This document shows, one piece after another, positions 1 through 16,885 of a stretch of DNA of 16,885 nucleotides. Position numbers and translations under genes: made by a program. The notes under the pieces were generated by a model that saw only the letters and a program-made list of their open reading frames with translations, was not told the origin of the DNA and did no database searches. Origin of the DNA: a virus; the IMG/VR virus record IMGVR_UViG_3300037511_000197. One strand, written 5' to 3'. The stretch's first letter is position 1; each line of letters begins with the position of its first letter.

Positions 1-127
1 TCGTCGCCCGGCCCGTCCGCCGGGATGTGGCGCCTCACCGCGCGGCGCCCGTCTCTCGAGCCGGGCCCTCGCCGAACGAGAGGCCCTGTACGTGTTCCGG
101 TACGGGCTGCGACCCGTCCGCGGTGAG
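1..127. repeat. Terminal direct repeat, copy 1 (identical to 16759..16885); most likely circular-assembly overlap
   Basis: Base-by-base comparison shows 127/127 identity with the last 127 nt of the window. Confidence 0.95.
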
Positions 128-546: not shown

Positions 547-780
547 ATGACGATCACACAGACGGCAATCGCCATCGGGCCGGACCTCGGTACCGTCCCG
601 TGGGCCGCCGAAACGCTCAACCTCTCGCAGCGACACGTCCGTCGCCTCCTGCGAGACGGCAAGCTCAAGACCGTACGCCCGCGCCGCGGCTCGACCGAGA
701 GCCAGAACCGCTGCACGCTCGTGTTCGTCGACGAGGTGCTCGAGTACAAGCGCGCACGTCAGGTGGTGGCCGGTGAGTGA
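547..780 (+). CDS. Helix-turn-helix DNA-binding protein, excisionase/MerR-like (HTH_17-type), 77 aa
   Basis: The motif VPWAAETLNLSQRHVRRLLRDGKLKTVRP...LVFVDEVLEY is typical of Xis-family winged HTH proteins. It is the first gene of the rightward arm. Confidence 0.7.
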   Translation: MTITQTAIAIGPDLGTVPWAAETLNLSQRHVRRLLRDGKLKTVRPRRGSTESQNRCTLVFVDEVLEYKRARQVVAGE

Positions 781-1051
781 CGACGATCCCATCGAGGTTC
801 CCCAGTTCTACGACTGCGAGCGCTGCGGCCGATTCCTGTTCCCCGTCCGGGCTGTGTTCCTGTACGGCGAATCCGAGGGCGTCATCCTGTGGTCGGGCGG
901 CCCGTACGGCGTCGAGTGCGCCAAGGTCATCGCCCGCGAGCGGTGGAAGCGCGGCCAGATGACATACCGAGGGCTCAACAAGCACGGCCGCCCGCACCGG
1001 CCGTACCTGTTCCGCGGGTTCGCGTTCGGTGGCGGCCGTGCCGGCGCTTGA
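773..1051 (+). CDS. Hypothetical protein, 92 aa, with CxxC...C motif
   Basis: The GTG start overlaps the upstream stop (GTGAGTGA). High third-position GC. Motif YDCERCGRF...GVECAK. Confidence 0.65.
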   Translation: MSDDDPIEVPQFYDCERCGRFLFPVRAVFLYGESEGVILWSGGPYGVECAKVIARERWKRGQMTYRGLNKHGRPHRPYLFRGFAFGGGRAGA

Positions 1052-1178
1052 CCGCTCGACGCTGCAGCGGCCGCGGTGCGCGCGCTGCCGGCAGCTGCAC
1101 GGCGCCCTGGTCGCGTGCCCGCCGATCGGCGTGTGGCTGATGGCGTGGTCCGAACGGGTGAACGGGCGGCGCCGCTAA
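1038..1178 (+). CDS. Possible small protein, about 46 aa (alternative GTG at 1029), RPRCARCRQLHGALVACPP...
   Basis: Not in the ORF track because it is under 60 aa. My hand translation gives about 44/46 codons ending in G/C. It overlaps the upstream stop and ends at TAA 1176..1178. Confidence 0.35.
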   Translation: MPALDRSTLQRPRCARCRQLHGALVACPPIGVWLMAWSERVNGRRR

Positions 1179-1778
1179 ATCACGAACGGCCAGCATCCGA
1201 GGTTGCAATCCTCGGGCCGGCCGATCATGATGACGCTGCTCAAAAACCCAAGGTGAAGGCTACCGGATAAGTGCCCACCACTCGAACCGCAAGGACCGGA
1301 CTCGCAACCCGGTGAGTGACGAACCCCAGAGCAGGTAGTAACTGGGGGCCCCTGAGCTGGGGCGCAAAACGTCCGACGGCAATCCGTCCGTTCCCTAACA
1401 AGGTGAAAACGGTCATTTGGAGTCGGTCGCCACGCGCCCGTTGACCCCCGGAGCAACCCAGGGGCACACACGGCAGGCCCAGGACGCCACCCGCAGAGGG
1501 TGCGCGTACGGAGAGCACCGGCACCCCTCGAGCTGTAGTCCCACGGCGCTCTCTGGCCGCCGCGGGACTCATGGTGGGCCCGGGGGGTGCCGGCCGTACG
1601 CGGAAGAGCCGCCGACACATCCCGCCCTGGCGCGGCCGTAATGGGCCGCGCGGTGAGCTCTGCAACCGACCGACCGACCGTCGAGCCACCCCCACCCCTG
1701 CACGGCCACGCTTCCCTCGTGACCGTGCAGGGGTGGGGTGCTTCCCTCACTCACTCCCATCGAGCAGGAGAAACGCCC
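1179..1778 (+). other. ORF-poor, lower-GC, hairpin-dense non-coding block (candidate structured RNA, cos or ori region)
   Basis: No ORF here has protein-like composition or the high GC3 of neighbouring genes. It holds many stems: 1187..1223, 1324..1347, 1348..1363, 1375..1388, 1488..1502, the composite 1503..1602, 1630..1651 and 1690..1738. It also holds (ACCG)x4 at 1665..1680 and the 9-mer CAAGGTGAA twice exactly 150 nt apart (1249, 1399). Confidence 0.6.
1690..1738 (+). terminator. Strong GC-rich hairpin (16-bp perfect stem plus 4 bp inner stem), U-tail-less terminator or attenuator candidate
   Basis: CCCCACCCCTGCACGG (1690..1705) pairs with CCGTGCAGGGGTGGGG (1723..1738). An inner CACG/CGTG stem leaves a 7-nt loop, CTTCCCT. 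It lies 28 nt upstream of the AGGAGA RBS of gene 1779. No T-run follows. Confidence 0.45.
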
Positions 1779-2342
1779 ATGGAAATCCAGCTGCACGAGG
1801 ATCTCGAAGCCGCCCTATCCGCCGCCCTCCGATTCGCGCTCCGGATCGAGGCGTATGACGTCGCTGGACACCTCGCCCACGCCCTGCACGCCCACACGAC
1901 CGCCCAGAACGCCCAGCACGCCCACCGCCCGTACGGCGGGCCCGGACCCCTGTGCGGCCACGGGTACATCGCGGACGGCCAGGCATGCCCCCAGGGGTGC
2001 CCCGAACCTCCCACCGAACGACTCGTGCGCGTCCCCATGGTCGGCCGGACCCGCGATGAGGCTCCTAGGACGGCTCACCCGCTGTGTATCTGCCCACGCA
2101 ACGGCGCCGGCCGGATCGGCACCGATCCGGGCTGCCCGATCCACCAGCCGGGCGCCGCAGGCCTGCACGCCGTGCCCACCGAACGCATCGAACCTCCCGC
2201 CGAGTGGCACCGTCACGCCATCGAGGTCGATGCGGGCCAGCCGTACCGCAAATGGGAGCCCGGTCCCGTCCATCCGGGCCCCGAGGAGGCCTGCCGACTG
2301 CACCCCGCTCAGCAGGCCGTCAGCGAGCAGCCGGAAGCCTGA
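1779..2342 (+). CDS. Hypothetical Cys/His-rich protein, 187 aa
   Basis: AGGAGA (1766..1771) lies 7 nt before ATG 1779. GC3 rises sharply after 1779 compared with the upstream part of the long ORF 1587..2342. It contains CICP-x10-PGCPIH. Confidence 0.7.
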   Translation: MEIQLHEDLEAALSAALRFALRIEAYDVAGHLAHALHAHTTAQNAQHAHRPYGGPGPLCGHGYIADGQACPQGCPEPPTERLVRVPMVGRTRDEAPRTAHPLCICPRNGAGRIGTDPGCPIHQPGAAGLHAVPTERIEPPAEWHRHAIEVDAGQPYRKWEPGPVHPGPEEACRLHPAQQAVSEQPEA

Positions 2343-2676: not shown

Positions 2677-3479
2677 TCGACATACACGCCCGCGGGTACG
2701 CCCTGCTCGAGCTCGAGTGCACACGATGCGGATGGACTGAGGAGCAAGACCCGGGCGGCCCTACGCTGAGCACCGTCATGGCGCACGCCATGCGCCACGT
2801 ACAGGAGGCGCACCGCCCGCCCGCTGACGTGGCCGTGGTGCGCCCGGACGACATCGAGCAGCGCACGTACCGGCGCGATGCTGAGCACAAGTGTCAGGAG
2901 TGGCAGCCCCGGCAACACCCAGGCTCCGCCACGTTGTACCGGTGCTCACTGGACCTTGGCCACGACGGGGCGCATCGGGCGTACGTAGATGGTGGACTCG
3001 TCGCGGGGTGGCCGCGGCGGCCCGACCCGTGGCGCGGGTACGGCGTGGGCGACACGGTGCGCTGGCACGGGATGCGCTGGATGATCGTCAAGCTCGAGTG
3101 CAAGACCAGCGTCGGCGACCAGGAAGAGACCACCGCAACGATCACGTTCGCCGACGAGCTGCGCGGCACGGCTGGTCTCCCGGACCAGCGTGTCGGGCTC
3201 GAGCGGCTCGAGCTCATCGAGCCGGCCGATTTTTCCCGGGCCGGCACCCCTGGGACACCCGCGCCCTGTTCTTTCTCTCCCCCCGGGCCGATCTCGAGCG
3301 ATTCTTCCGGGGCAGTCACGGAAGGTAGCGATCTCCGCTGTTCGTGCCCGCCGCCGGCCGATGACGTCTGGCCGGCACCGGGGTGCCCCGTGCACGGCGA
3401 GCCGGGCGCGCCCCGCCACACGCTGAACCACCCAGGCAGCGACCGATGGACAGGCGGGGATCGCAAGGACGAGCCCTGA
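2649..3479 (+). CDS. Hypothetical protein, 276 aa (alternative start ATG 2673 in an ATGA overlap)
   Basis: GGGGGAG (2635..2641) lies 7 nt before ATG 2649. The C-terminus carries CSCP-x9-PGCPVH, paralogous to the motif in gene 1779..2342. Confidence 0.7.
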   Translation: MHTSHGLDMIDIHARGYALLELECTRCGWTEEQDPGGPTLSTVMAHAMRHVQEAHRPPADVAVVRPDDIEQRTYRRDAEHKCQEWQPRQHPGSATLYRCSLDLGHDGAHRAYVDGGLVAGWPRRPDPWRGYGVGDTVRWHGMRWMIVKLECKTSVGDQEETTATITFADELRGTAGLPDQRVGLERLELIEPADFSRAGTPGTPAPCSFSPPGPISSDSSGAVTEGSDLRCSCPPPADDVWPAPGCPVHGEPGAPRHTLNHPGSDRWTGGDRKDEP

Positions 3480-3898
3480 TGGCCGAGCTCGAGCAGTTCA
3501 CCTCGCTGCGCGCGGCGCTGGTCGCGGCGCTCGAGGACGCGCCGTACCTCCCGCGGGACCGGGCGGCCGTGGCGCTGGCGCTGCGGTACGCCGACCTGCT
3601 CGACGACGCGCAAGATCGAGTGGAGCAGGCCGACGACGACGACGAGAGCCGGGCGTACGGCCGGTACGTCGCCGTGGTGGCGAAGATCGGCCCCCGGCTC
3701 GAGGCGGTCCTCGACCGGATGGGCATGACGCCCGGCGCGCGGCCGGCCGTACCCGGAGGGAGCCCGCATGGCAGCGCACCTGACCCCCGTGCCGTCGCCC
3801 TCGAGCAGCTGCAGCAATCCGCCGGAGCCCCTGCCCCTGGGATCGATCCGGCCGCGTTTGTGGACCCGGCCGTTGAGGAGGCTGACGCCGGAGACTAG
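3479..3898 (+). CDS. terS: Terminase small subunit, 139 aa
   Basis: It sits directly before terL with a TGATG start overlap. LRYADLLDDA...VAKIGPRLEAVLDRMGMTPGAR resembles actinophage TerS sequences. Confidence 0.65.
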   Translation: MAELEQFTSLRAALVAALEDAPYLPRDRAAVALALRYADLLDDAQDRVEQADDDDESRAYGRYVAVVAKIGPRLEAVLDRMGMTPGARPAVPGGSPHGSAPDPRAVALEQLQQSAGAPAPGIDPAAFVDPAVEEADAGD

Positions 3899-5342
3899 CT
3901 ACGGCTACGCCGTCATCGTGTTCGCTGCGCTCGTGCTGGGCGAGCCCCTCGACCCGTGGCAGCAGTGGCTCGTGATCCACCTCGGGGAGTTGCTCCCGGA
4001 CGGGCGGCCGCGGTTCCGTCAGGTGCTCGTGGTGGTCGCGCGGCAGCAGGGCAAGACGCACCTGTGCAAGGTGCTGTCGCTGTTCTGGCTGTTCGTCGAG
4101 AAGTGGCCGATGGTGTTCGGCACCTCGACGAACCTCGAGCAGGCCGCCGAGTCGTGGCAGGCCGCCGTGGACATGGCGAAGGAGTGCGAGCCGCTCGCCG
4201 GCCAGCTGCCGCGCAACGCGGTGCGGCTGGCCAACGGGCAGCAGACGTTCCGGACCGTCCACCGCACCGTGTACAAGATCGGCGCCGTCAACCGCAAGGG
4301 CGGCCGCGGCAAGAGCATCGACCGGATGATCGGCGACGAGCTCCGCGAGCACCAGTCGTGGGACGGCTACCTAGCCGCGTTCGGTGCCATGAACGCCCGC
4401 CCGTACGGGCAGGCCGTGTTCATCACCAACCAGGGCGACGCGAAGAGCGTCGTGCTGACCTCGCTGCGCGACAACGCCCTCGCGTACGCGACGACGGGGG
4501 AGGGGGACGAGCGTCTCGGGATCTTCGAGTGGTCGGCGCCGGAGGGTACGCACCCGATGGACGTGCACGGGTGGGCGGCCGCCATGCCGCAGCTGGGCCG
4601 GCGCACCGACTACGACTCGGTGCGCTCCCTGGCGCTGCGGGTGAGCAAACCCGGCGCCGACCCGGAAGAGCTCGCCGGGTTCCTCACCGAGTACCTGTGC
4701 ATGGCCGTGCCGTCGCTCAAGCCCGCGCTGTCCCCGGTCGCGTGGGCCCGCGGCCGGGTGCCCGCGCCGCTGGACCTCGAGCAGCGCGGCGCCCTGGCCG
4801 CGTGCCTCGACGTGTCCCCGGACCTGCAGCACGCGACCCTCGCCGTCGGCGCGTACGACGGGGCGAAGGTCCGCGGTGAGCTCGTGCACGCCTGGTCGGG
4901 TCCGGACGCCCTCACAGCGCTGCGCGCGGAGCTGCCGGAGTGGATCGCCCGCGTGCGCCCGGCGGTGCTCGGATGGTTCCCGGGCGGCCCGGCCGCGGCG
5001 CTGGACGCCGACCTGCGCGACCGGCGCAAGGAAGGCCGCCGCGGGTGGCCACCCGCCGGGGTGCGCATGGTGGAGATCACCACGGACGCCGCGGCGGTGT
5101 GCATGGGGTTCGCGTCGGCGCTGGACGCCAACCTTTTCCTACACTCGGGGCAGGAGTTGCTCGACGAGCAGGCCCGGCAGGCCACCACGCGCGCGCAGGG
5201 CCCGGACCGCTGGGTGTTCGCCCGCGGCGGTGACGCGCACTGCGACAGCGTGTACGCCGTGGCGGGCGTCGTCCACCTCGTACGCACCCAGCCGAAGCGG
5301 CGCCGGGTCAACCCGGGCGTACGTGTCGCACCCGGGGGCTAG
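3768..5342 (+). CDS. terL: Terminase large subunit, 524 aa
   Basis: Walker A-like VVVARQQGKT and Walker B-like IDRMIGDELREH. The N-terminal RPRLWTRPLRRLTPETSYGYAVIVFA is typical of TerL. GGAGGGA (3755..3761) lies 6 nt before the ATG. Confidence 0.9.
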   Translation: MAAHLTPVPSPSSSCSNPPEPLPLGSIRPRLWTRPLRRLTPETSYGYAVIVFAALVLGEPLDPWQQWLVIHLGELLPDGRPRFRQVLVVVARQQGKTHLCKVLSLFWLFVEKWPMVFGTSTNLEQAAESWQAAVDMAKECEPLAGQLPRNAVRLANGQQTFRTVHRTVYKIGAVNRKGGRGKSIDRMIGDELREHQSWDGYLAAFGAMNARPYGQAVFITNQGDAKSVVLTSLRDNALAYATTGEGDERLGIFEWSAPEGTHPMDVHGWAAAMPQLGRRTDYDSVRSLALRVSKPGADPEELAGFLTEYLCMAVPSLKPALSPVAWARGRVPAPLDLEQRGALAACLDVSPDLQHATLAVGAYDGAKVRGELVHAWSGPDALTALRAELPEWIARVRPAVLGWFPGGPAAALDADLRDRRKEGRRGWPPAGVRMVEITTDAAAVCMGFASALDANLFLHSGQELLDEQARQATTRAQGPDRWVFARGGDAHCDSVYAVAGVVHLVRTQPKRRRVNPGVRVAPGG

Positions 5343-5408: not shown

Positions 5409-8402
5409 ATGGGATGGATCGCGGCAGCGTGGGACACGGTTACGCGCGCTCTCTCCCCGTCTCCGCCGTTCGTGCTCGAGCTCGAGCCGGCCGCCACGTT
5501 CGCCTCGACGGAGAGCGCACCGCGGCCGATCGATCAGGTGCTCGCCGCCATGTCCGGGCTGAGCAACACCCGCGTGGGCCGCACGGAGGCGCTGCAGGTC
5601 GCCGCCGTGCAGCGCGGCCGCAACGAGCTGTGCGCGATCGGCACGCTCCCGCTGCGGCTGTTCAACGGGCTGAACATCGTGCAGCACCCGCTCTTCCGGC
5701 AGACCGACCCGGACGTCCCCAACATCATCACGATGGCCCAGACGATCGAAGACCTGATCTTCGAGGGCGCCGCGTGGTGGCGGGTGATCTCCCGCGACTT
5801 CGACCTGTACCCCGTCGCCGCCCGGTACGTGCCGTACGGCAAGGTCCAGCTACGGCCGCCGGCCGACCAGGTGCGCGCCCCCAACCCGACCGGTCTGCCC
5901 GCCCCTGGCAAGTACGTGTGGATCGACGGCGAGCAGGTCCCTATCGCGGACATGATCCGTTTCGACTCCCCGAACCCGGGGCTGCTCACCGCGTGCGCTC
6001 GCAGCGTGCGGCGCGCGTTGCTGCTCGACCAGCTGGCCGCCATGTACGCCGAGAGCCCCCGCCCGCTGGACTACTTCACCACCCGCAGCGGCACGCTCGA
6101 CGTCGAGCCGATGAGCGAGACCGACCAGGACGTCTTCCTCGCCGAGTGGGAAGCCGCACGCCGGATGCGCGCGACCGGTTGGATACCGGAGAACGTCGAG
6201 CGGGTGGACGTGTCCACGCCCAGCCCCGCCGACTTGCAGCTCGTACAGCTGCAGCAGCAGGTGTCTCTCGAGATCGCGAACGGGCTGGGCGTCGACCCTG
6301 AAGACCTGGGCGTGTCGACCACGTCGCGCACGTACTTCAACGCCCAGGACCGCCGTCAGGAGAAGGTCAACCGGACGTACGCCCCGTACATGCGCGCGAT
6401 CACTGACCGGCTCACCATGGGCGACGTCACCCGCCGCGGCTACGAGGTGCGCTTCGATCTCAGCGACTACCTGCGCGCCGACCCGGCGACGCAAATTCTC
6501 TACTGGGAAGGGCTGCAGCGCATGCGCGTCGCCTCGACGGAATGGATCGCCGACCAGGCTGGCATCTCGCAGGACCGGATGCCGGCCCCGGACGCCGCGC
6601 CGCCCGCGCCGGCCGCGCTGCCCGCCGGGCAGAGCTCGCAGCGCATCTCCGTGCAGCTGGACGCCGGACCCCGGACGTTCACCGTGGACGCACCCACGCA
6701 GCGGTTCTCCGCCGACGTCGAGCGGCGCACCATTTCCGGCCTGGCGCTGCCCTACGGCAAGGTGGCCCGCAAGTACGGCATCTCGTACCGGTTCCTGCCC
6801 GGCTCCCTCGAGTGGTCGGACGTGTCGCGCGTCAAGCACCTCAAGGACCACATCACCCCGATCGGGGTGGCGAAGTCCATCACGTCGACCGCGGAGGGGC
6901 TCGAGGTCACCCTCGGCGTGAGCGACGGTATCGAGGGCAGCCGCGAGAAGGCCGAACGTGATCAGCTGCTCTTCGACGCCGCGGAGGGGCTGTACGACGG
7001 GCTGTCGGTGGGCGTGGACTTCCAGGTCACCGACGACCCGGACACCACGGACGCCGTCTACAACGAGACCGACGGCGTGTACGACGTGCGCCGTGCGTCG
7101 CTGCAGGAAGTCAGCACCACCCCGCTGCCCGCATTCGCAGACGCCCGCGTGACCAAGGTGGCCGCGAGCCGAGATGGAGGAAACATGCCCTGCCCCAATT
7201 GCGGTCACCAGCACGCCCCGGGGGTGTCGTGCCACACCGCGGCCCAGCGGGCCCAGGAGGCGGCTGCCCAGTTCCACCAGCCGACCACCCCGGCGCCCGG
7301 CACCCCGTCGCCCGCGCCGACGCCCACGCCCGCCCCGGCGCCGTCCGGTCCGGAGCAGGTCACCCCGCAGGCCCGGTTCGCCGCGACAGAGGTCCGCGAG
7401 CCCGCGCCGTACGTCTTCGACCGCACCGGGCACCTGCGCGCCGGTACCCACGACTTCTCCACTGACCTGTTCAACGGGTGGAGCAAGGGCGACCTCGCGG
7501 CCAAGGACCGCGCGTCGACGTTCGTGCGGGAGGCATTCGCGGTCACCCCCGCCAACGTGGCCAGCCTCAACCCGACGATCAACCGGCCCGACATGTACGT
7601 CGACCAGCTGGACTACACGTCGCCGATCTGGGAGGCCATCAACAAGGGCACCCTGACCAACCAGACCCCGTTCACGGTGCCGAAGTTCTCGGCATCGTCC
7701 GGCCTGGTCGCCGACCACGTCACCGGTACCGAGCCGACCCCCGGCGCGTTCTCCGCGACCGTGCAGACCATCACCCCGACCGGCGTGTCCGGCAAGGTGG
7801 AGGTGACCCGCGAGGCGTGGGACCAGGGCGGCAACCCGCAGATGTCCGGGCTCATCTGGCGGCAGATGGTCCGCGGCTACCGCGAAGCCCTCGAGGCGTA
7901 CGCCGTCGCCCAGCTGGTCGCCGTCGCCGCATCGATGACGGACATCGTCATCACCACCGCGGCCGCCGACTCGGCGCTCGATCAGGCGCTCGCCGCGGCG
8001 CTCGTCCCGCTGCGCTACATCCGCGGCGGTGACCGGTTCACTGACGTGTTCACGCAGGTCGACCTCTACTCGGCGCTCGCGAAGGCCAAGGACACCGCCG
8101 GGCGGCCGCTGTACCCGGAGATCAACCCGCAGAACGCGGCCGGTACGCAGAACGACGGGTCCGGCCTGATCCAGGCCCGCGGCAAGAACTTCTGGCCGGC
8201 ATGGGCCACCGCGGCGACCAGCATCAACGCCTCGAGCTCGTACATGTTCAACCGCGACGTCGTGTGCGGCTGGGCGTCGGCGCCGCAGCGCATCGACATC
8301 GAGTGGCGCGTGGCGTGGGTCGACATCGGCATCTGGGGCTACAAGGCATTCGCGGTCACGGACTACACCGGCACCCGCGAGCTCGTCTACGACCCGGTGT
8401 GA
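5409..8402 (+). CDS. Portal / HK97-family prohead protease / major capsid protein fusion ORF, 997 aa
   Basis: Residues 1 to about 390 are portal-like (RTEALQVAAVQRGRNELCAIGTLPLRLF, DLIFEGAAWWRV). Residues about 425-585 are protease-like (RTISGLALPYGKVAR, VKHLKDH, DGLSVGVDF, EVSTTPLPAFADARV). Residues 593-650 hold CPNCGH..C.H plus a Pro/Thr/Ala linker. Residues about 650-997 look like an HK97-fold MCP. The reading frame is uninterrupted. Confidence 0.8.
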   Translation: MGWIAAAWDTVTRALSPSPPFVLELEPAATFASTESAPRPIDQVLAAMSGLSNTRVGRTEALQVAAVQRGRNELCAIGTLPLRLFNGLNIVQHPLFRQTDPDVPNIITMAQTIEDLIFEGAAWWRVISRDFDLYPVAARYVPYGKVQLRPPADQVRAPNPTGLPAPGKYVWIDGEQVPIADMIRFDSPNPGLLTACARSVRRALLLDQLAAMYAESPRPLDYFTTRSGTLDVEPMSETDQDVFLAEWEAARRMRATGWIPENVERVDVSTPSPADLQLVQLQQQVSLEIANGLGVDPEDLGVSTTSRTYFNAQDRRQEKVNRTYAPYMRAITDRLTMGDVTRRGYEVRFDLSDYLRADPATQILYWEGLQRMRVASTEWIADQAGISQDRMPAPDAAPPAPAALPAGQSSQRISVQLDAGPRTFTVDAPTQRFSADVERRTISGLALPYGKVARKYGISYRFLPGSLEWSDVSRVKHLKDHITPIGVAKSITSTAEGLEVTLGVSDGIEGSREKAERDQLLFDAAEGLYDGLSVGVDFQVTDDPDTTDAVYNETDGVYDVRRASLQEVSTTPLPAFADARVTKVAASRDGGNMPCPNCGHQHAPGVSCHTAAQRAQEAAAQFHQPTTPAPGTPSPAPTPTPAPAPSGPEQVTPQARFAATEVREPAPYVFDRTGHLRAGTHDFSTDLFNGWSKGDLAAKDRASTFVREAFAVTPANVASLNPTINRPDMYVDQLDYTSPIWEAINKGTLTNQTPFTVPKFSASSGLVADHVTGTEPTPGAFSATVQTITPTGVSGKVEVTREAWDQGGNPQMSGLIWRQMVRGYREALEAYAVAQLVAVAASMTDIVITTAAADSALDQALAAALVPLRYIRGGDRFTDVFTQVDLYSALAKAKDTAGRPLYPEINPQNAAGTQNDGSGLIQARGKNFWPAWATAATSINASSSYMFNRDVVCGWASAPQRIDIEWRVAWVDIGIWGYKAFAVTDYTGTRELVYDPV

Positions 8403-11272: not shown

Positions 11273-12251
11273 CCAGGTGACCCTGACGTTCGCGGGGGAG
11301 AGCACCAACCTCGAACAGACTTTCGATCGGGTGGGCGAATCGTCGAAGCGGGTCGGCGAGCACGCCAAGGAAGCCGGAGACGGGTTCAGCAAGGCTGGTG
11401 AGGCGGCCGACGAGGTCGACACTAAGGCCATGGGGTTCCGCGACACCCTGACCGGTGTGCAGGACTCCATGTCCGGACTGGCCATGCTCAGCAAGGGGCC
11501 CAGCTTCGAGGGTTTCCTCACCCTGGGTGCAGGTATCGGCGACCTGGGCAGCGGCTTTTACAACTTCCTCATCCCGGCGCTGGAAAAGACGAAACTCGCC
11601 ACGGTCGCCTCGACGGTGGCGAGCAAGGCCGCCGCCATCGGGACGAAGGCGTGGGCGGCCGCGCAGTGGCTGATGAGCGGTGCGCTGTGGGCGTCGCCGA
11701 TCACGTGGATCGTGGTGGCCATCATCGCGCTGATCGCCGTCATCGTGCTGATCGCGACCAAGACGGACTGGTTCCAACGGGCGTGGCGCGCCTCCTGGCG
11801 GTGGATCAAGGACGCAGCGTCGGACGTGTGGGAGTGGTTGAAGAAGGTGCCGGGGTGGATCGGCCACGCGTTCTCCAAGGTCGCCGACTTCCTCACCGCG
11901 CCGTTCCGGGCCGCGTTCAACTTCATCGCCCGCGCGTGGAACAACACCGTCGGCGGGCTGTCCTGGTCGGTGCCCAGCTGGGTGCCGTTCATCGGCGGCA
12001 ACTCGATCTCCGTGCCGCACCTGCGCACGTTCGACGTCGGCGGGTACGTCCCCGGGCACCCCGGTACCCCGGTGCTCGCCATGCTGCAGGCAGGCGAGCG
12101 GGTGCAGCCCCGCACCTCGAGCGGCAGCGGGGGGGTGCTGCGGCTGGGCTCCGACGGCACCCGCATGGGCGATTGGATCTTGGACGTGATCGCCGACGCC
12201 ATGCGTGGCCGCGGTGGCGACCCGGCGCAACTCGGCATCGAGCTGGGCTGA
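11265..12251 (+). CDS. Tape measure protein, unusually short (328 aa)
   Basis: It sits after the chaperone genes. It has an Ala/Gly-rich helical N-terminus and an internal hydrophobic segment (ITWIVVAIIALIAVIVLIA). Confidence 0.7.
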   Translation: MANQVTLTFAGESTNLEQTFDRVGESSKRVGEHAKEAGDGFSKAGEAADEVDTKAMGFRDTLTGVQDSMSGLAMLSKGPSFEGFLTLGAGIGDLGSGFYNFLIPALEKTKLATVASTVASKAAAIGTKAWAAAQWLMSGALWASPITWIVVAIIALIAVIVLIATKTDWFQRAWRASWRWIKDAASDVWEWLKKVPGWIGHAFSKVADFLTAPFRAAFNFIARAWNNTVGGLSWSVPSWVPFIGGNSISVPHLRTFDVGGYVPGHPGTPVLAMLQAGERVQPRTSSGSGGVLRLGSDGTRMGDWILDVIADAMRGRGGDPAQLGIELG

Positions 12252-16448: not shown

Positions 16449-16796
16449 TCACCGCAGGCACGGCGGGGGACCGCCCTGGGGGCACGGGACCGGGATGGTG
16501 CTGGGCGTGACCATCGGCCCGGACGCCCGGCCGGCGGCCGCGCCGACCACGATCACGAGCAGGACCACCAGCGCCGCCATCACGAGCAGAGCGCCGATCG
16601 CGACGAGCCCTGCCGAGACCCGGTACCGCTGCGGCTGGCGCACCTCATACGTGCAGCCGCACGCGCGTCCGGTGGCCACCCACCCGGCCATGCATCCCGT
16701 GTCGGTGTGCGTGCCCTCCCACGGCCAGTGGCCGCACCGCGGGCACCGCACCCGCTGCTCGTCGCCCGGCCCGTCCGCCGGGATGTGGCGCCTCAC
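16449..16796 (-). CDS. Membrane-anchored Cys-rich (zinc-ribbon-like) protein, 115 aa
   Basis: The GTG start overlaps the stop of the 154-aa gene across the circular junction. N-terminal CPRCGHW...GC...CGC, then the TM helix VSAGLVAIGALLVMAALVVLLVIVVGAAAG. Minus-strand third-position GC is about 95% versus about 75% for the antisense plus frame. Confidence 0.75.
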   Translation of the reverse strand: MRRHIPADGPGDEQRVRCPRCGHWPWEGTHTDTGCMAGWVATGRACGCTYEVRQPQRYRVSAGLVAIGALLVMAALVVLLVIVVGAAAGRASGPMVTPSTIPVPCPQGGPPPCLR

Positions 16797-16885
16797 CGCG
16801 CGGCGCCCGTCTCTCGAGCCGGGCCCTCGCCGAACGAGAGGCCCTGTACGTGTTCCGGTACGGGCTGCGACCCGTCCGCGGTGAG
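16759..16885. repeat. Terminal direct repeat, copy 2 (identical to 1..127)
   Basis: Same comparison as copy 1. It contains the 5' end of the minus-strand gene 16449..16796 and the 3' end of the gene annotated at 35..499. Confidence 0.95.

Follow-up and report, generated by a model that had tools for sequence, protein, structure and literature searches.

A 600-nt gap between genes, at positions 1179-1778 of the phage genome IMG/VR record IMGVR_UViG_3300037511_000197 (16,885 nt; this whole stretch is the window, and coordinates are window positions unless a contig is named), very probably contains a genuine structured RNA gene of a new class. The gap is about as conserved as the large terminase gene (TerL), with a mean column entropy in nine genomes of 0.81 for the gap region and 0.71 for TerL. 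A pseudoknotted fold of approximately 500 nt is conserved on the + strand from about 1238 to 1740. The RNA is a portable module, which is found in either orientation relative to the structural genes and in phages as well as two plasmid-like elements. We consider it moderately probable that this is a stand-alone functional RNA, working through its own fold and not just as a leader. An initial annotation, made from the sequence alone, had offered a stand-alone noncoding RNA, a leader RNA, a cohesive-end (cos) site, or a replication origin, and no known family; the stand-alone and no-known-family parts held up, the leader part was weakened, the cos part failed, and the origin part was neither borne out nor refuted.

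Conservation and Noncoding Character of the Gap

A search of viral contigs seeded with TerL returned 21 related loci, mostly on contigs of 15-19 kb. Among those with the early region, the gap aligned at approximately 70-73% over nearly its full length, and the flanking early genes were unalignable as DNA. Matches of the gap region in relatives by nhmmer had E values of 1e-73 to 1e-146. The most conserved 22-mer of the gap was then used to scan three collections, with 11 matches in viral contigs, 2 in genomes, and 25 in metagenomes, and nhmmer confirmed 29 distinct full-length homologs from viral and soil metagenome contigs. A Nocardia match to the 22-mer (L032) was set aside as probably due to chance, being without nhmmer or covariance model (CM) support when approximately one chance match was expected. 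The initial annotation had staked its proposal on conservation and covariation of the stems among relatives, and both were found.

The carriers form a clade of roughly 17-kb cos-type actinophages in which the RNA lies behind a small helix-turn-helix (HTH) gene. No copy of the RNA was found in cultured phages when 50,697 phage genomes were searched by BLAST in near and distant modes. Relatives L014, L016, L017, L020, and L021, whose TerL identity is at most 55% and whose sequences extend upstream of TerL, had no detectable copy. The distribution is thus patchy, as expected for a mobile module. L020, on a 36-kb contig, could represent an integrated form.

The third-codon-position GC (GC3) gene signal was flat over the gap. 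No open frame was kept across the homologs in any frame, and their length differences were non-multiples of three. Column entropy by codon phase was 0.93/0.98/0.99 for the gap compared to 0.65/0.58/0.88 for TerL in the nine genomes. The lack of a conserved frame, the non-triplet length changes, and the absence of codon periodicity indicate that the gap is not a protein gene. Folding of the 600 nt was more stable than that of dinucleotide shuffles on both strands (z = -5.3 for the + strand and -6.3 for the - strand). Among 67 genome windows of 250 nt, 1501-1750 had a minimum free energy z of -6.0, the runner-up being -2.8 (mean -0.32, standard deviation 1.43). The flat GC3, these z values, and the lack of a conserved open reading frame (ORF) bear out the description of a gene-free, hairpin-dense block of about 600 nt. 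The accompanying statement that the genome has almost no other spacer was incorrect, as a second spacer of approximately 250 nt lies between 2342 and 2592.

Covariation and Pseudoknotted Fold of the RNA

The structure was derived with RNAalifold from an alignment of 29 sequences, and a 106-pair core of helices with at least 4 pairs was evaluated (Table 1). RNAalifold called 77 pairs, 55 of them with compensatory double changes. In the 106-pair core, 88.9% of cells pair, compared to 36-44% when the 3' partners were slid by 1-3 columns. Changes on both sides were present in 69 of the 106 pairs, and the observed values were reached by none of 500 column shuffles.

The top of an all-against-all covariation scan was a pair outside the nested structure. 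Positions 1474-1476, within the invariant ACGGnnGGCCCA, pair with 1627-1629, within CCCGCCCnnG, to form the pseudoknot. A lone long-range pair joins position 1473 to 1691, which is in the terminal hairpin's 5' arm, and this pair is found as all four Watson-Crick types and as a G-U wobble. The pair types listed for the contacts of 1473-1476 were AU10/CG9/GC6/UA4, AU20/UA8/UG1, and GC17/AU6/UA2/CG1/GU1. For the four pairs of the pseudoknot and 1473-1691 together, 98.3% of cells were paired compared to 7-48% when slid. Since 1691 covaries with 1473, the terminal hairpin is docked on the core as a part of the fold and is not a simple terminator. The most conserved block, GAGCCGCCGACACAUCCCGCCCUGG, supplies the 3' strands of both the closing helix and the pseudoknot, and was the source of the search pattern.

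G-U pairs outnumbered A-C pairs (181 vs 78), and, read on the opposite strand, several of the conserved G-U pairs would turn into C-A mismatches. This excess is suggestive of the + strand as the folded species.

The stems named in the initial annotation were all present in the sequence, and most fall within the conserved consensus and covary. Among them, the 19-bp composite stem is conserved and covarying with a tip that varies in length, and the hairpins given as 1630-1651 and 1690-1738 are both in the consensus and covary. A recurrence of GCTTCCCTC at the terminal hairpin (1710-1718 and 1740-1748) had also been read correctly. Pairings around 1324-1363 that had been called mutually exclusive are instead two neighboring hairpins, both of which covary. 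An 11-bp hairpin at 1538-1568 and an (ACCG)x4 run are present as described, but both lie in the variable part of the family; a few other members have a similar CGACCG run.

Promoter-like Element and 3' End

A putative promoter, TTGCAA-17-CATGAT, is present just upstream of the fold, where it had been predicted. Hexamers of the form TTGnnn-16..19-nAnnnT occupy the same alignment register in 27 of the 29 homologs and have two flavors, TTGAC(A/G)-16-TAnnCT and the TTGCAA-17-CA(C/T)GAT type of the window. The window hexamers score 8/12 against the Escherichia coli consensus and are not called by an E. coli-consensus scanner, so the promoter assignment rests on conservation. An inverted repeat flanks the -35 hexamer, with all 8 pairs changed on both sides and 86% of cells pairing. 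A palindromic protein-binding site would covary in the same manner, and this repeat could be an operator.

At the other end, there was no T-run after the hairpin 1690-1738 in the window, nor in the aligned tails of the relatives, so the U-tract of an intrinsic terminator is missing. A consensus tail, CACCAAC.CUCCCAUCGAGAAG, is kept in most relatives.

Plasmid Copies

Two shorter, divergent copies of the RNA were found in actinomycete plasmid-like DNA, one from Micromonospora (L033) and one from Prauserella (L059). Both were recovered with CM R1, a model of 90 positions built on 1415-1504. The Micromonospora copy (nhmmer E = 1e-25, CM E = 2.9e-12) is on a 23.8-kb contig from an isolate, Micromonospora sp. 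NPDC005298, where it adjoins a ParA-type ATPase and a TraG-like coupling protein and is followed by short TTCCGCA/TGCGGA-type repeats. The Prauserella copy (CM E = 1.4e-6; L059 about 11690-12200) lies in an unannotated gap of the circular, 14,853-bp Prauserella coralliicola plasmid pPcorDSM45821a (CM009982.1) from the cultured strain DSM 45821. With the Micromonospora copy as the BLAST query against PLSDB, the Prauserella plasmid was recovered; the window RNA gave only chance matches, and the Prauserella copy matched itself only.

After the Prauserella RNA (L059 12240-12480) are an AT-rich perfect 10-bp palindrome, GGCTGTATAA CTGA TTATACAGCC, and at least 8 GGACCG repeats, which could represent an origin with iterons or an origin of transfer (oriT). 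A 406-aa ORF of no recognizable family follows the repeats. The plasmid also encodes a TrwC-type relaxase, farther on in the same strand, and, at another place, a coupling protein. No protein was found in common between the phages and the plasmid elements, either by window-protein tblastn, which covered L033, or with a hidden Markov model (HMM) of gene X, the gene that follows the RNA in the window, which was run on both elements and detected no gene X.

The Gene Downstream of the RNA

Gene X belongs to a very divergent, fast-evolving, and rare protein family that usually lies 3' of the RNA. The window's protein had no tblastn match among the downstream genes of the relatives; the idea that these genes are unrelated was rejected when ORF reading and the HMM revealed the shared family. 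In 20 of 29 distinct RNA-bearing sequences, the HMM matches gene X immediately behind the RNA or with a single small ORF in between. The N-terminus is helical and TPR-like with a GRY-type motif, and a VPxIGxTRDEQPR segment is present. Most members have a Cys/His-rich C-terminal domain, SHAPxxC...C..I.W...GW.H...H, in place of which the window protein and its closest relatives (P0013-P0015) have HPLCICPRN...DPGCPIH. Gene X had no match in Pfam, PHROGs, NCBIfam, or a PDB sequence profile search, and its AlphaFold2 model (predicted local distance difference test score 76.5) matched nothing in the PDB at E <= 0.001 by Foldseek. Only 15 relatives were found among 5.8 billion proteins. Within the gene, 1880-1924 holds three imperfect copies of CGCCC(T/A)G(C/A)ACGCCCA that encode the His/Ala-rich HALHAHTTAQNAQHAH.

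One contig (L053, RNA at 6954-7591) has a 39-aa ORF between the RNA and gene X. It starts 46 nt after the terminal hairpin, and its pattern is that of a DnaJ-like zinc finger, CxxCxGxG...CxxCxGxG.

In one lineage, the module of HTH gene and RNA is inverted relative to the structural genes. Only a 60-aa ORF follows the RNA in contig L006, and this ORF is missing from L054, an independent assembly 99% identical to L006, in which the strand runs into the end of a convergent gene. The two contigs, which are from different samples, differ by a 212-nt indel (L006 4444-4655) that removes the sole ORF downstream of the inverted module. The HMM detected no gene X in this lineage.

Comparison with Known RNAs

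Rfam 15 (4227 families) was searched at the gathering score with no match for the window, L032, or L033. At E <= 10, the gap gave only generic miRNA-type hairpin matches far below threshold, and at E <= 1 there was nothing relevant in 11 other members. The RNA was not placed in any Rfam family by these searches, including GOLLD, ROOL, OLE, HEARO, raiA, RNase P, tmRNA, 6S, group I and II introns, T-box, and riboswitches, which agrees with the earlier claim, for which an Infernal/Rfam check had been proposed, that it belongs to no known family. ARAGORN found no tRNA or tmRNA in the window, and we found no description of this RNA in the literature.

In kind, the RNA resembles GOLLD and ROOL, large ornate RNAs common on phages and prophages, being longer than 400 nt and phage-borne with many covarying helices, conserved junctions, and tertiary contacts. 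It differs from them in having no covariance model match, in its high-GC actinomycete hosts (those of GOLLD and ROOL are Firmicutes or lake and rumen bacteria), in having no neighboring tRNA genes, which GOLLD and ROOL often adjoin, and in being present on plasmids and usually followed by a dedicated protein gene.

The phi29 pRNA is likewise a structural RNA encoded by a small phage genome and expressed from an early promoter. However, it is approximately 170 nt and works with a terminal-protein packaging system, whereas the present phage has TerS, TerL, and cos, and the RNA is also found on plasmids with no capsid genes. As with HK022 put, EAR, and conAn-type RNAs, the RNA mostly heads a long same-strand operon on a phage or conjugative element. 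Such processive antitermination RNAs are small, consisting of one or two stem-loops; the RNA described here is about 500 nt and in L006 and L054 is upstream of no operon. P4 CI RNA and P1/P7 C4 RNA, too, are encoded close to regulatory genes of a small phage, in its early or immunity region. These are short, antisense-acting RNAs with complementary target sites, and a short-word BLAST of both strands of nine carrier genomes found no repeated or complementary sites to the RNA above chance level.

Function of the RNA

The inverted lineage with no following gene and the plasmids with no gene X favor a stand-alone RNA over a leader. The initial proposal of a stand-alone noncoding RNA with its own promoter and an end at the terminal hairpin is further supported by the conserved hexamers and the covariation. 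Such an RNA would be transcribed from the promoter-like element, fold into the 5' domain and a compact multi-helix core, and engage a host component. A host partner is probable because phages and plasmids keep the same RNA with no detectable shared protein. Most probably, the RNA would be expressed early and aid establishment of the incoming element, either by priming or activating replication with host enzymes or by neutralizing or redirecting a host factor (counter-defense). The position in the early region and the candidate oriT or origin repeats beside the Prauserella copy are suggestive of such a role. Gene X may be a phage-specific partner.

Several observations weigh against a stand-alone RNA. 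Hairpin and start codon are a constant distance of approximately 40-47 nt apart, the tail is conserved, and gene X follows the RNA in most phage members, a pattern that is expected of a cis-regulatory leader. The constant spacing and conserved tail make read-through and some coupling between the RNA and gene X likely, and with no U-tract, transcription probably continues into gene X. The promoter was recognized from conservation alone, and structured single-stranded DNA (ssDNA) would give the same covariation and the same G-T tolerance. There are just two plasmid examples, with repeats that may be either iterons or oriT, and no family is recognizable for the 406-aa protein encoded behind the repeats. 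The trans-acting and host-factor steps are purely our inference, and replication cannot be separated from counter-defense or another role.

The first of these points would be accounted for if the RNA were a 5' leader acting in cis on gene X and on the genes that follow, in which a very large sensor or attenuator domain controls formation of the terminal hairpin and thereby read-through or translation of gene X. We regard such a leader as unlikely, although it explains the placement of gene X in the 20 sequences, the constant distance, the conserved tail with its ribosome-binding site (RBS), and the missing terminator. The invariant CCCGCCC (1621-1627) or the core could, for example, compete with the arms of the hairpin 1687-1740; CCCGCCC is seen in the sequence to be complementary to GGG(U/C)GGG in the 3' arm, and the pairing of 1691 with the core means that hairpin and core are structurally coupled. 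However, covariation is no test of the alternative pairing, whose bases are invariant. Gene X is absent from L006 and L054, which retain the RNA, and in L054 the RNA has no downstream gene of any kind; the plasmid copies also lack gene X. At about 450 nt, the conserved pseudoknotted structure far exceeds the size of known riboswitches and attenuators. The more specific suggestion in the initial annotation, an antitermination or processing leader of the head operon, is weakened because the module in L006 and L054 points away from the structural genes with no or one small ORF after it.

It is more doubtful still that the gap is a replication origin with a primer of the ColE1 RNA II type, i.e., a transcript of host RNA polymerase that folds, stays hybridized close to its G-rich 3' end, and after processing serves as a primer for host DNA polymerase; this possibility overlaps with a trans-acting role. 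RNA II is likewise a transcript of about 500-550 nt, made from a host-type promoter on a small replicon, in which structure matters and the 3' end is G-rich. The terminal hairpin 3' arm of the present RNA is always G-rich, with GGGGUGGGG in phages and an 11-G run in the Prauserella copy. The module tolerates inversion. Behind the RNA of both plasmid-like elements lie repeats (GGACCG in L059, TTCCGCA/TGCGGA-type in L033), and the surroundings are of a replication or partition kind. No replication protein was recognized in the 16.8-kb genome, but this is weak evidence in a genome of mostly unassigned proteins. The RNA has no sequence or structural homology to RNA II, and its invariant junction nucleotides and pseudoknotted core go beyond what is known of RNA II-type primers. 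There is no AT-rich unwinding region and no visible antisense counterpart of RNA I, although antisense promoters were not sought systematically. Cumulative GC skew falls almost monotonically along the window with no sign change at the gap. An RNA primer would be superfluous in L059 if this plasmid has an initiator and iterons of its own, as it may.

That the folded species is ssDNA, either a single-strand origin (sso), as on rolling-circle plasmids, or an ssDNA promoter such as Frpo of conjugative plasmids, that is recognized after strand transfer or during rolling-circle replication, is highly improbable. The structure is strand-specific, covariation cannot distinguish RNA from ssDNA, and the element occurs on plasmids with a relaxase and coupling protein, beside a candidate oriT palindrome. 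However, hexamers of a double-strand promoter are conserved just upstream in 27 of the 29 homologs, the carriers are cos-type double-stranded DNA phages with terminase packaging, and no HUH Rep protein was found. The sso and Frpo elements are long imperfect hairpins, unlike the pseudoknot and lone tertiary pair found here.

Finally, a cos or packaging (pac) site or an unrecognized protein gene, as might be suggested by a large noncoding-looking block upstream of the packaging genes and by a 191-codon minus-strand ORF (1175-1750), has virtually no chance of being correct, because no ORF is conserved in any frame, codon periodicity is lacking, GC3 is flat, and the contig starts place the genome ends at about 3266 instead of in the gap.

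Genome Ends and Gene Order

The genome ends were deduced from where contigs begin. Of 10 independent related contigs, eight begin at one and the same CTGTYYTCTCTC (exactly at CTGTYYTCTCTCTCCCC), which corresponds to window position 3266, just upstream of TerS and inside the conserved block 3223-3344. A hint that the cohesive end may be about 11 nt long comes from contig L061, which stops 11 nt beyond the junction. With cos at approximately 3266, the RNA gene in the packaged linear genome would be some 1.5-2 kb short of the right end. The sequence at the presumed cos site, GGACACCCCGCCC/CTG (3252-3268), with GGACAC-CCCGCCCTG to the left of the cut in relatives, is similar to the invariant GACACAUCCCGCCCUG within the RNA (1614-1629); the resemblance is unproven and may be a coincidence, as it is not singled out by a short-word comparison in nine genomes.

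The window has a GC content of 70%. Bases 1-127 are identical to 16759-16885 (assembly overlap), which indicates a complete genome of 16,758 bp, circularly assembled or concatemer-derived, and the physical genome ends differ from the window ends. Genes were placed with GC3 frame plots and Pfam (Table 1). Most of the proteins are without assignment; the carriers of the RNA encode terminase, portal, and capsid. A megablast of the whole window against 50,697 phage records gave no match. Among cultured phages, small ones of Arthrobacter, Microbacterium, and Gordonia come nearest, with only about 30% amino acid identity.

A 997-aa ORF fuses Phage_portal, Peptidase_S78 (prohead protease), and Phage_capsid_4 (major capsid) domains. 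The full-length fusion is kept at 45-54% identity in relatives L003, L007, and L060. In cultured small actinophages, the portal is on its own gene and fusions are capsid-protease only.

Table 1. Positions of the RNA, its structural elements, and surrounding genes in the window (a slash within the cos sequence marks the cut)
Feature	Position	Strand	Remarks
Leftward gene pair	35-499 and 16449-16796	-	second gene spans the junction
Small HTH_17 gene	547-780	+	first of the rightward series
Two small ORFs	773-1051, 1029-1178	+	
Gap under study	1179-1778		no gene
Inverted repeat	1185-1192/1218-1225	+	flanks -35 hexamer; candidate operator or DNA/RNA hairpin
Promoter-like TTGCAA-17-CATGAT	1203-1231	+	predicted transcription start ~1237-1240
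5' domain	1238-1414	+	from alignment; conserved GCUACCGGA loop and two hairpins
Hairpin	1324-1329/1342-1347	+	UAGUAAC in loop; 4/6 pairs compensatory
Hairpin	1348-1353/1358-1363	+	6/6 pairs compensatory
Pseudoknotted core domain	1415-1740	+	from RNAalifold and pair counts
Long-range closing helix of core	1422-1431/1606-1616	+	
Helix	1434-1439/1482-1487	+	encloses 1440-1471
Helix	1488-1492/1498-1502	+	invariant GCAGA loop
Composite stem	1503-1511/1594-1602 and 1518-1525/1586-1593	+	tip variable in length
Most conserved block GAGCCGCCGACACAUCCCGCCCUGG	1606-1629	+	nearly invariant in 29 sequences
Hairpin	1630-1639/1643-1651	+	GUAAU loop
Terminal hairpin	1687-1707/1721-1740	+	20-bp stem
C-rich 3' tail	1741-1778	+	holds AGGAG 1766-1770, RBS of gene X
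Gene X	1779-2342	+	ATG at 1779; RBS AGGAG 1766-1770
Likely cos site	3223-3344 (conserved block), cut near 3265/3266		TTTTTCCCGG...GGACACCC(C)GCCC/CTGTT.TCTCTCCCC
TerS	3383-3898	+	
TerL	3768-5342	+	
Portal-protease-capsid ORF	5409-8402	+	997 aa; followed by head-tail and tail genes

Implications

Few bacterial RNAs reach lengths of several hundred nucleotides and combine many conserved helices with pseudoknots and invariant junctions. Such large RNAs, where they are understood, are nearly all ribozymes or cores of major ribonucleoproteins, and the unexplained ones, OLE, GOLLD, ROOL, and raiA, are under active study. The new class comes from a different setting, namely actinomycete plasmids and very small, high-GC soil phages that are uncultured and have hardly any annotated early genes. 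Conservation like that of TerL amid turnover of the neighboring genes, together with crossing between phages and plasmids, suggests an important action with host machinery. The copies in cultured P. coralliicola DSM 45821 and in a Micromonospora isolate make the RNA accessible with no need to isolate the phages, and the compact core of approximately 330 nt suits chemical probing and cryo-electron microscopy.

Tentatively, we raise the possibility of a new large-RNA class that has a biochemical activity or higher-order assembly of its own and is shared horizontally between actinomycete phages and plasmids. Members of that class could be ribozymes, self-assembling RNA particles, or RNAs that capture or inhibit a host defense or polymerase complex. 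If this is true, the RNA would act in the first minutes after DNA entry and would be the first such RNA from mobile elements of Actinomycetota.

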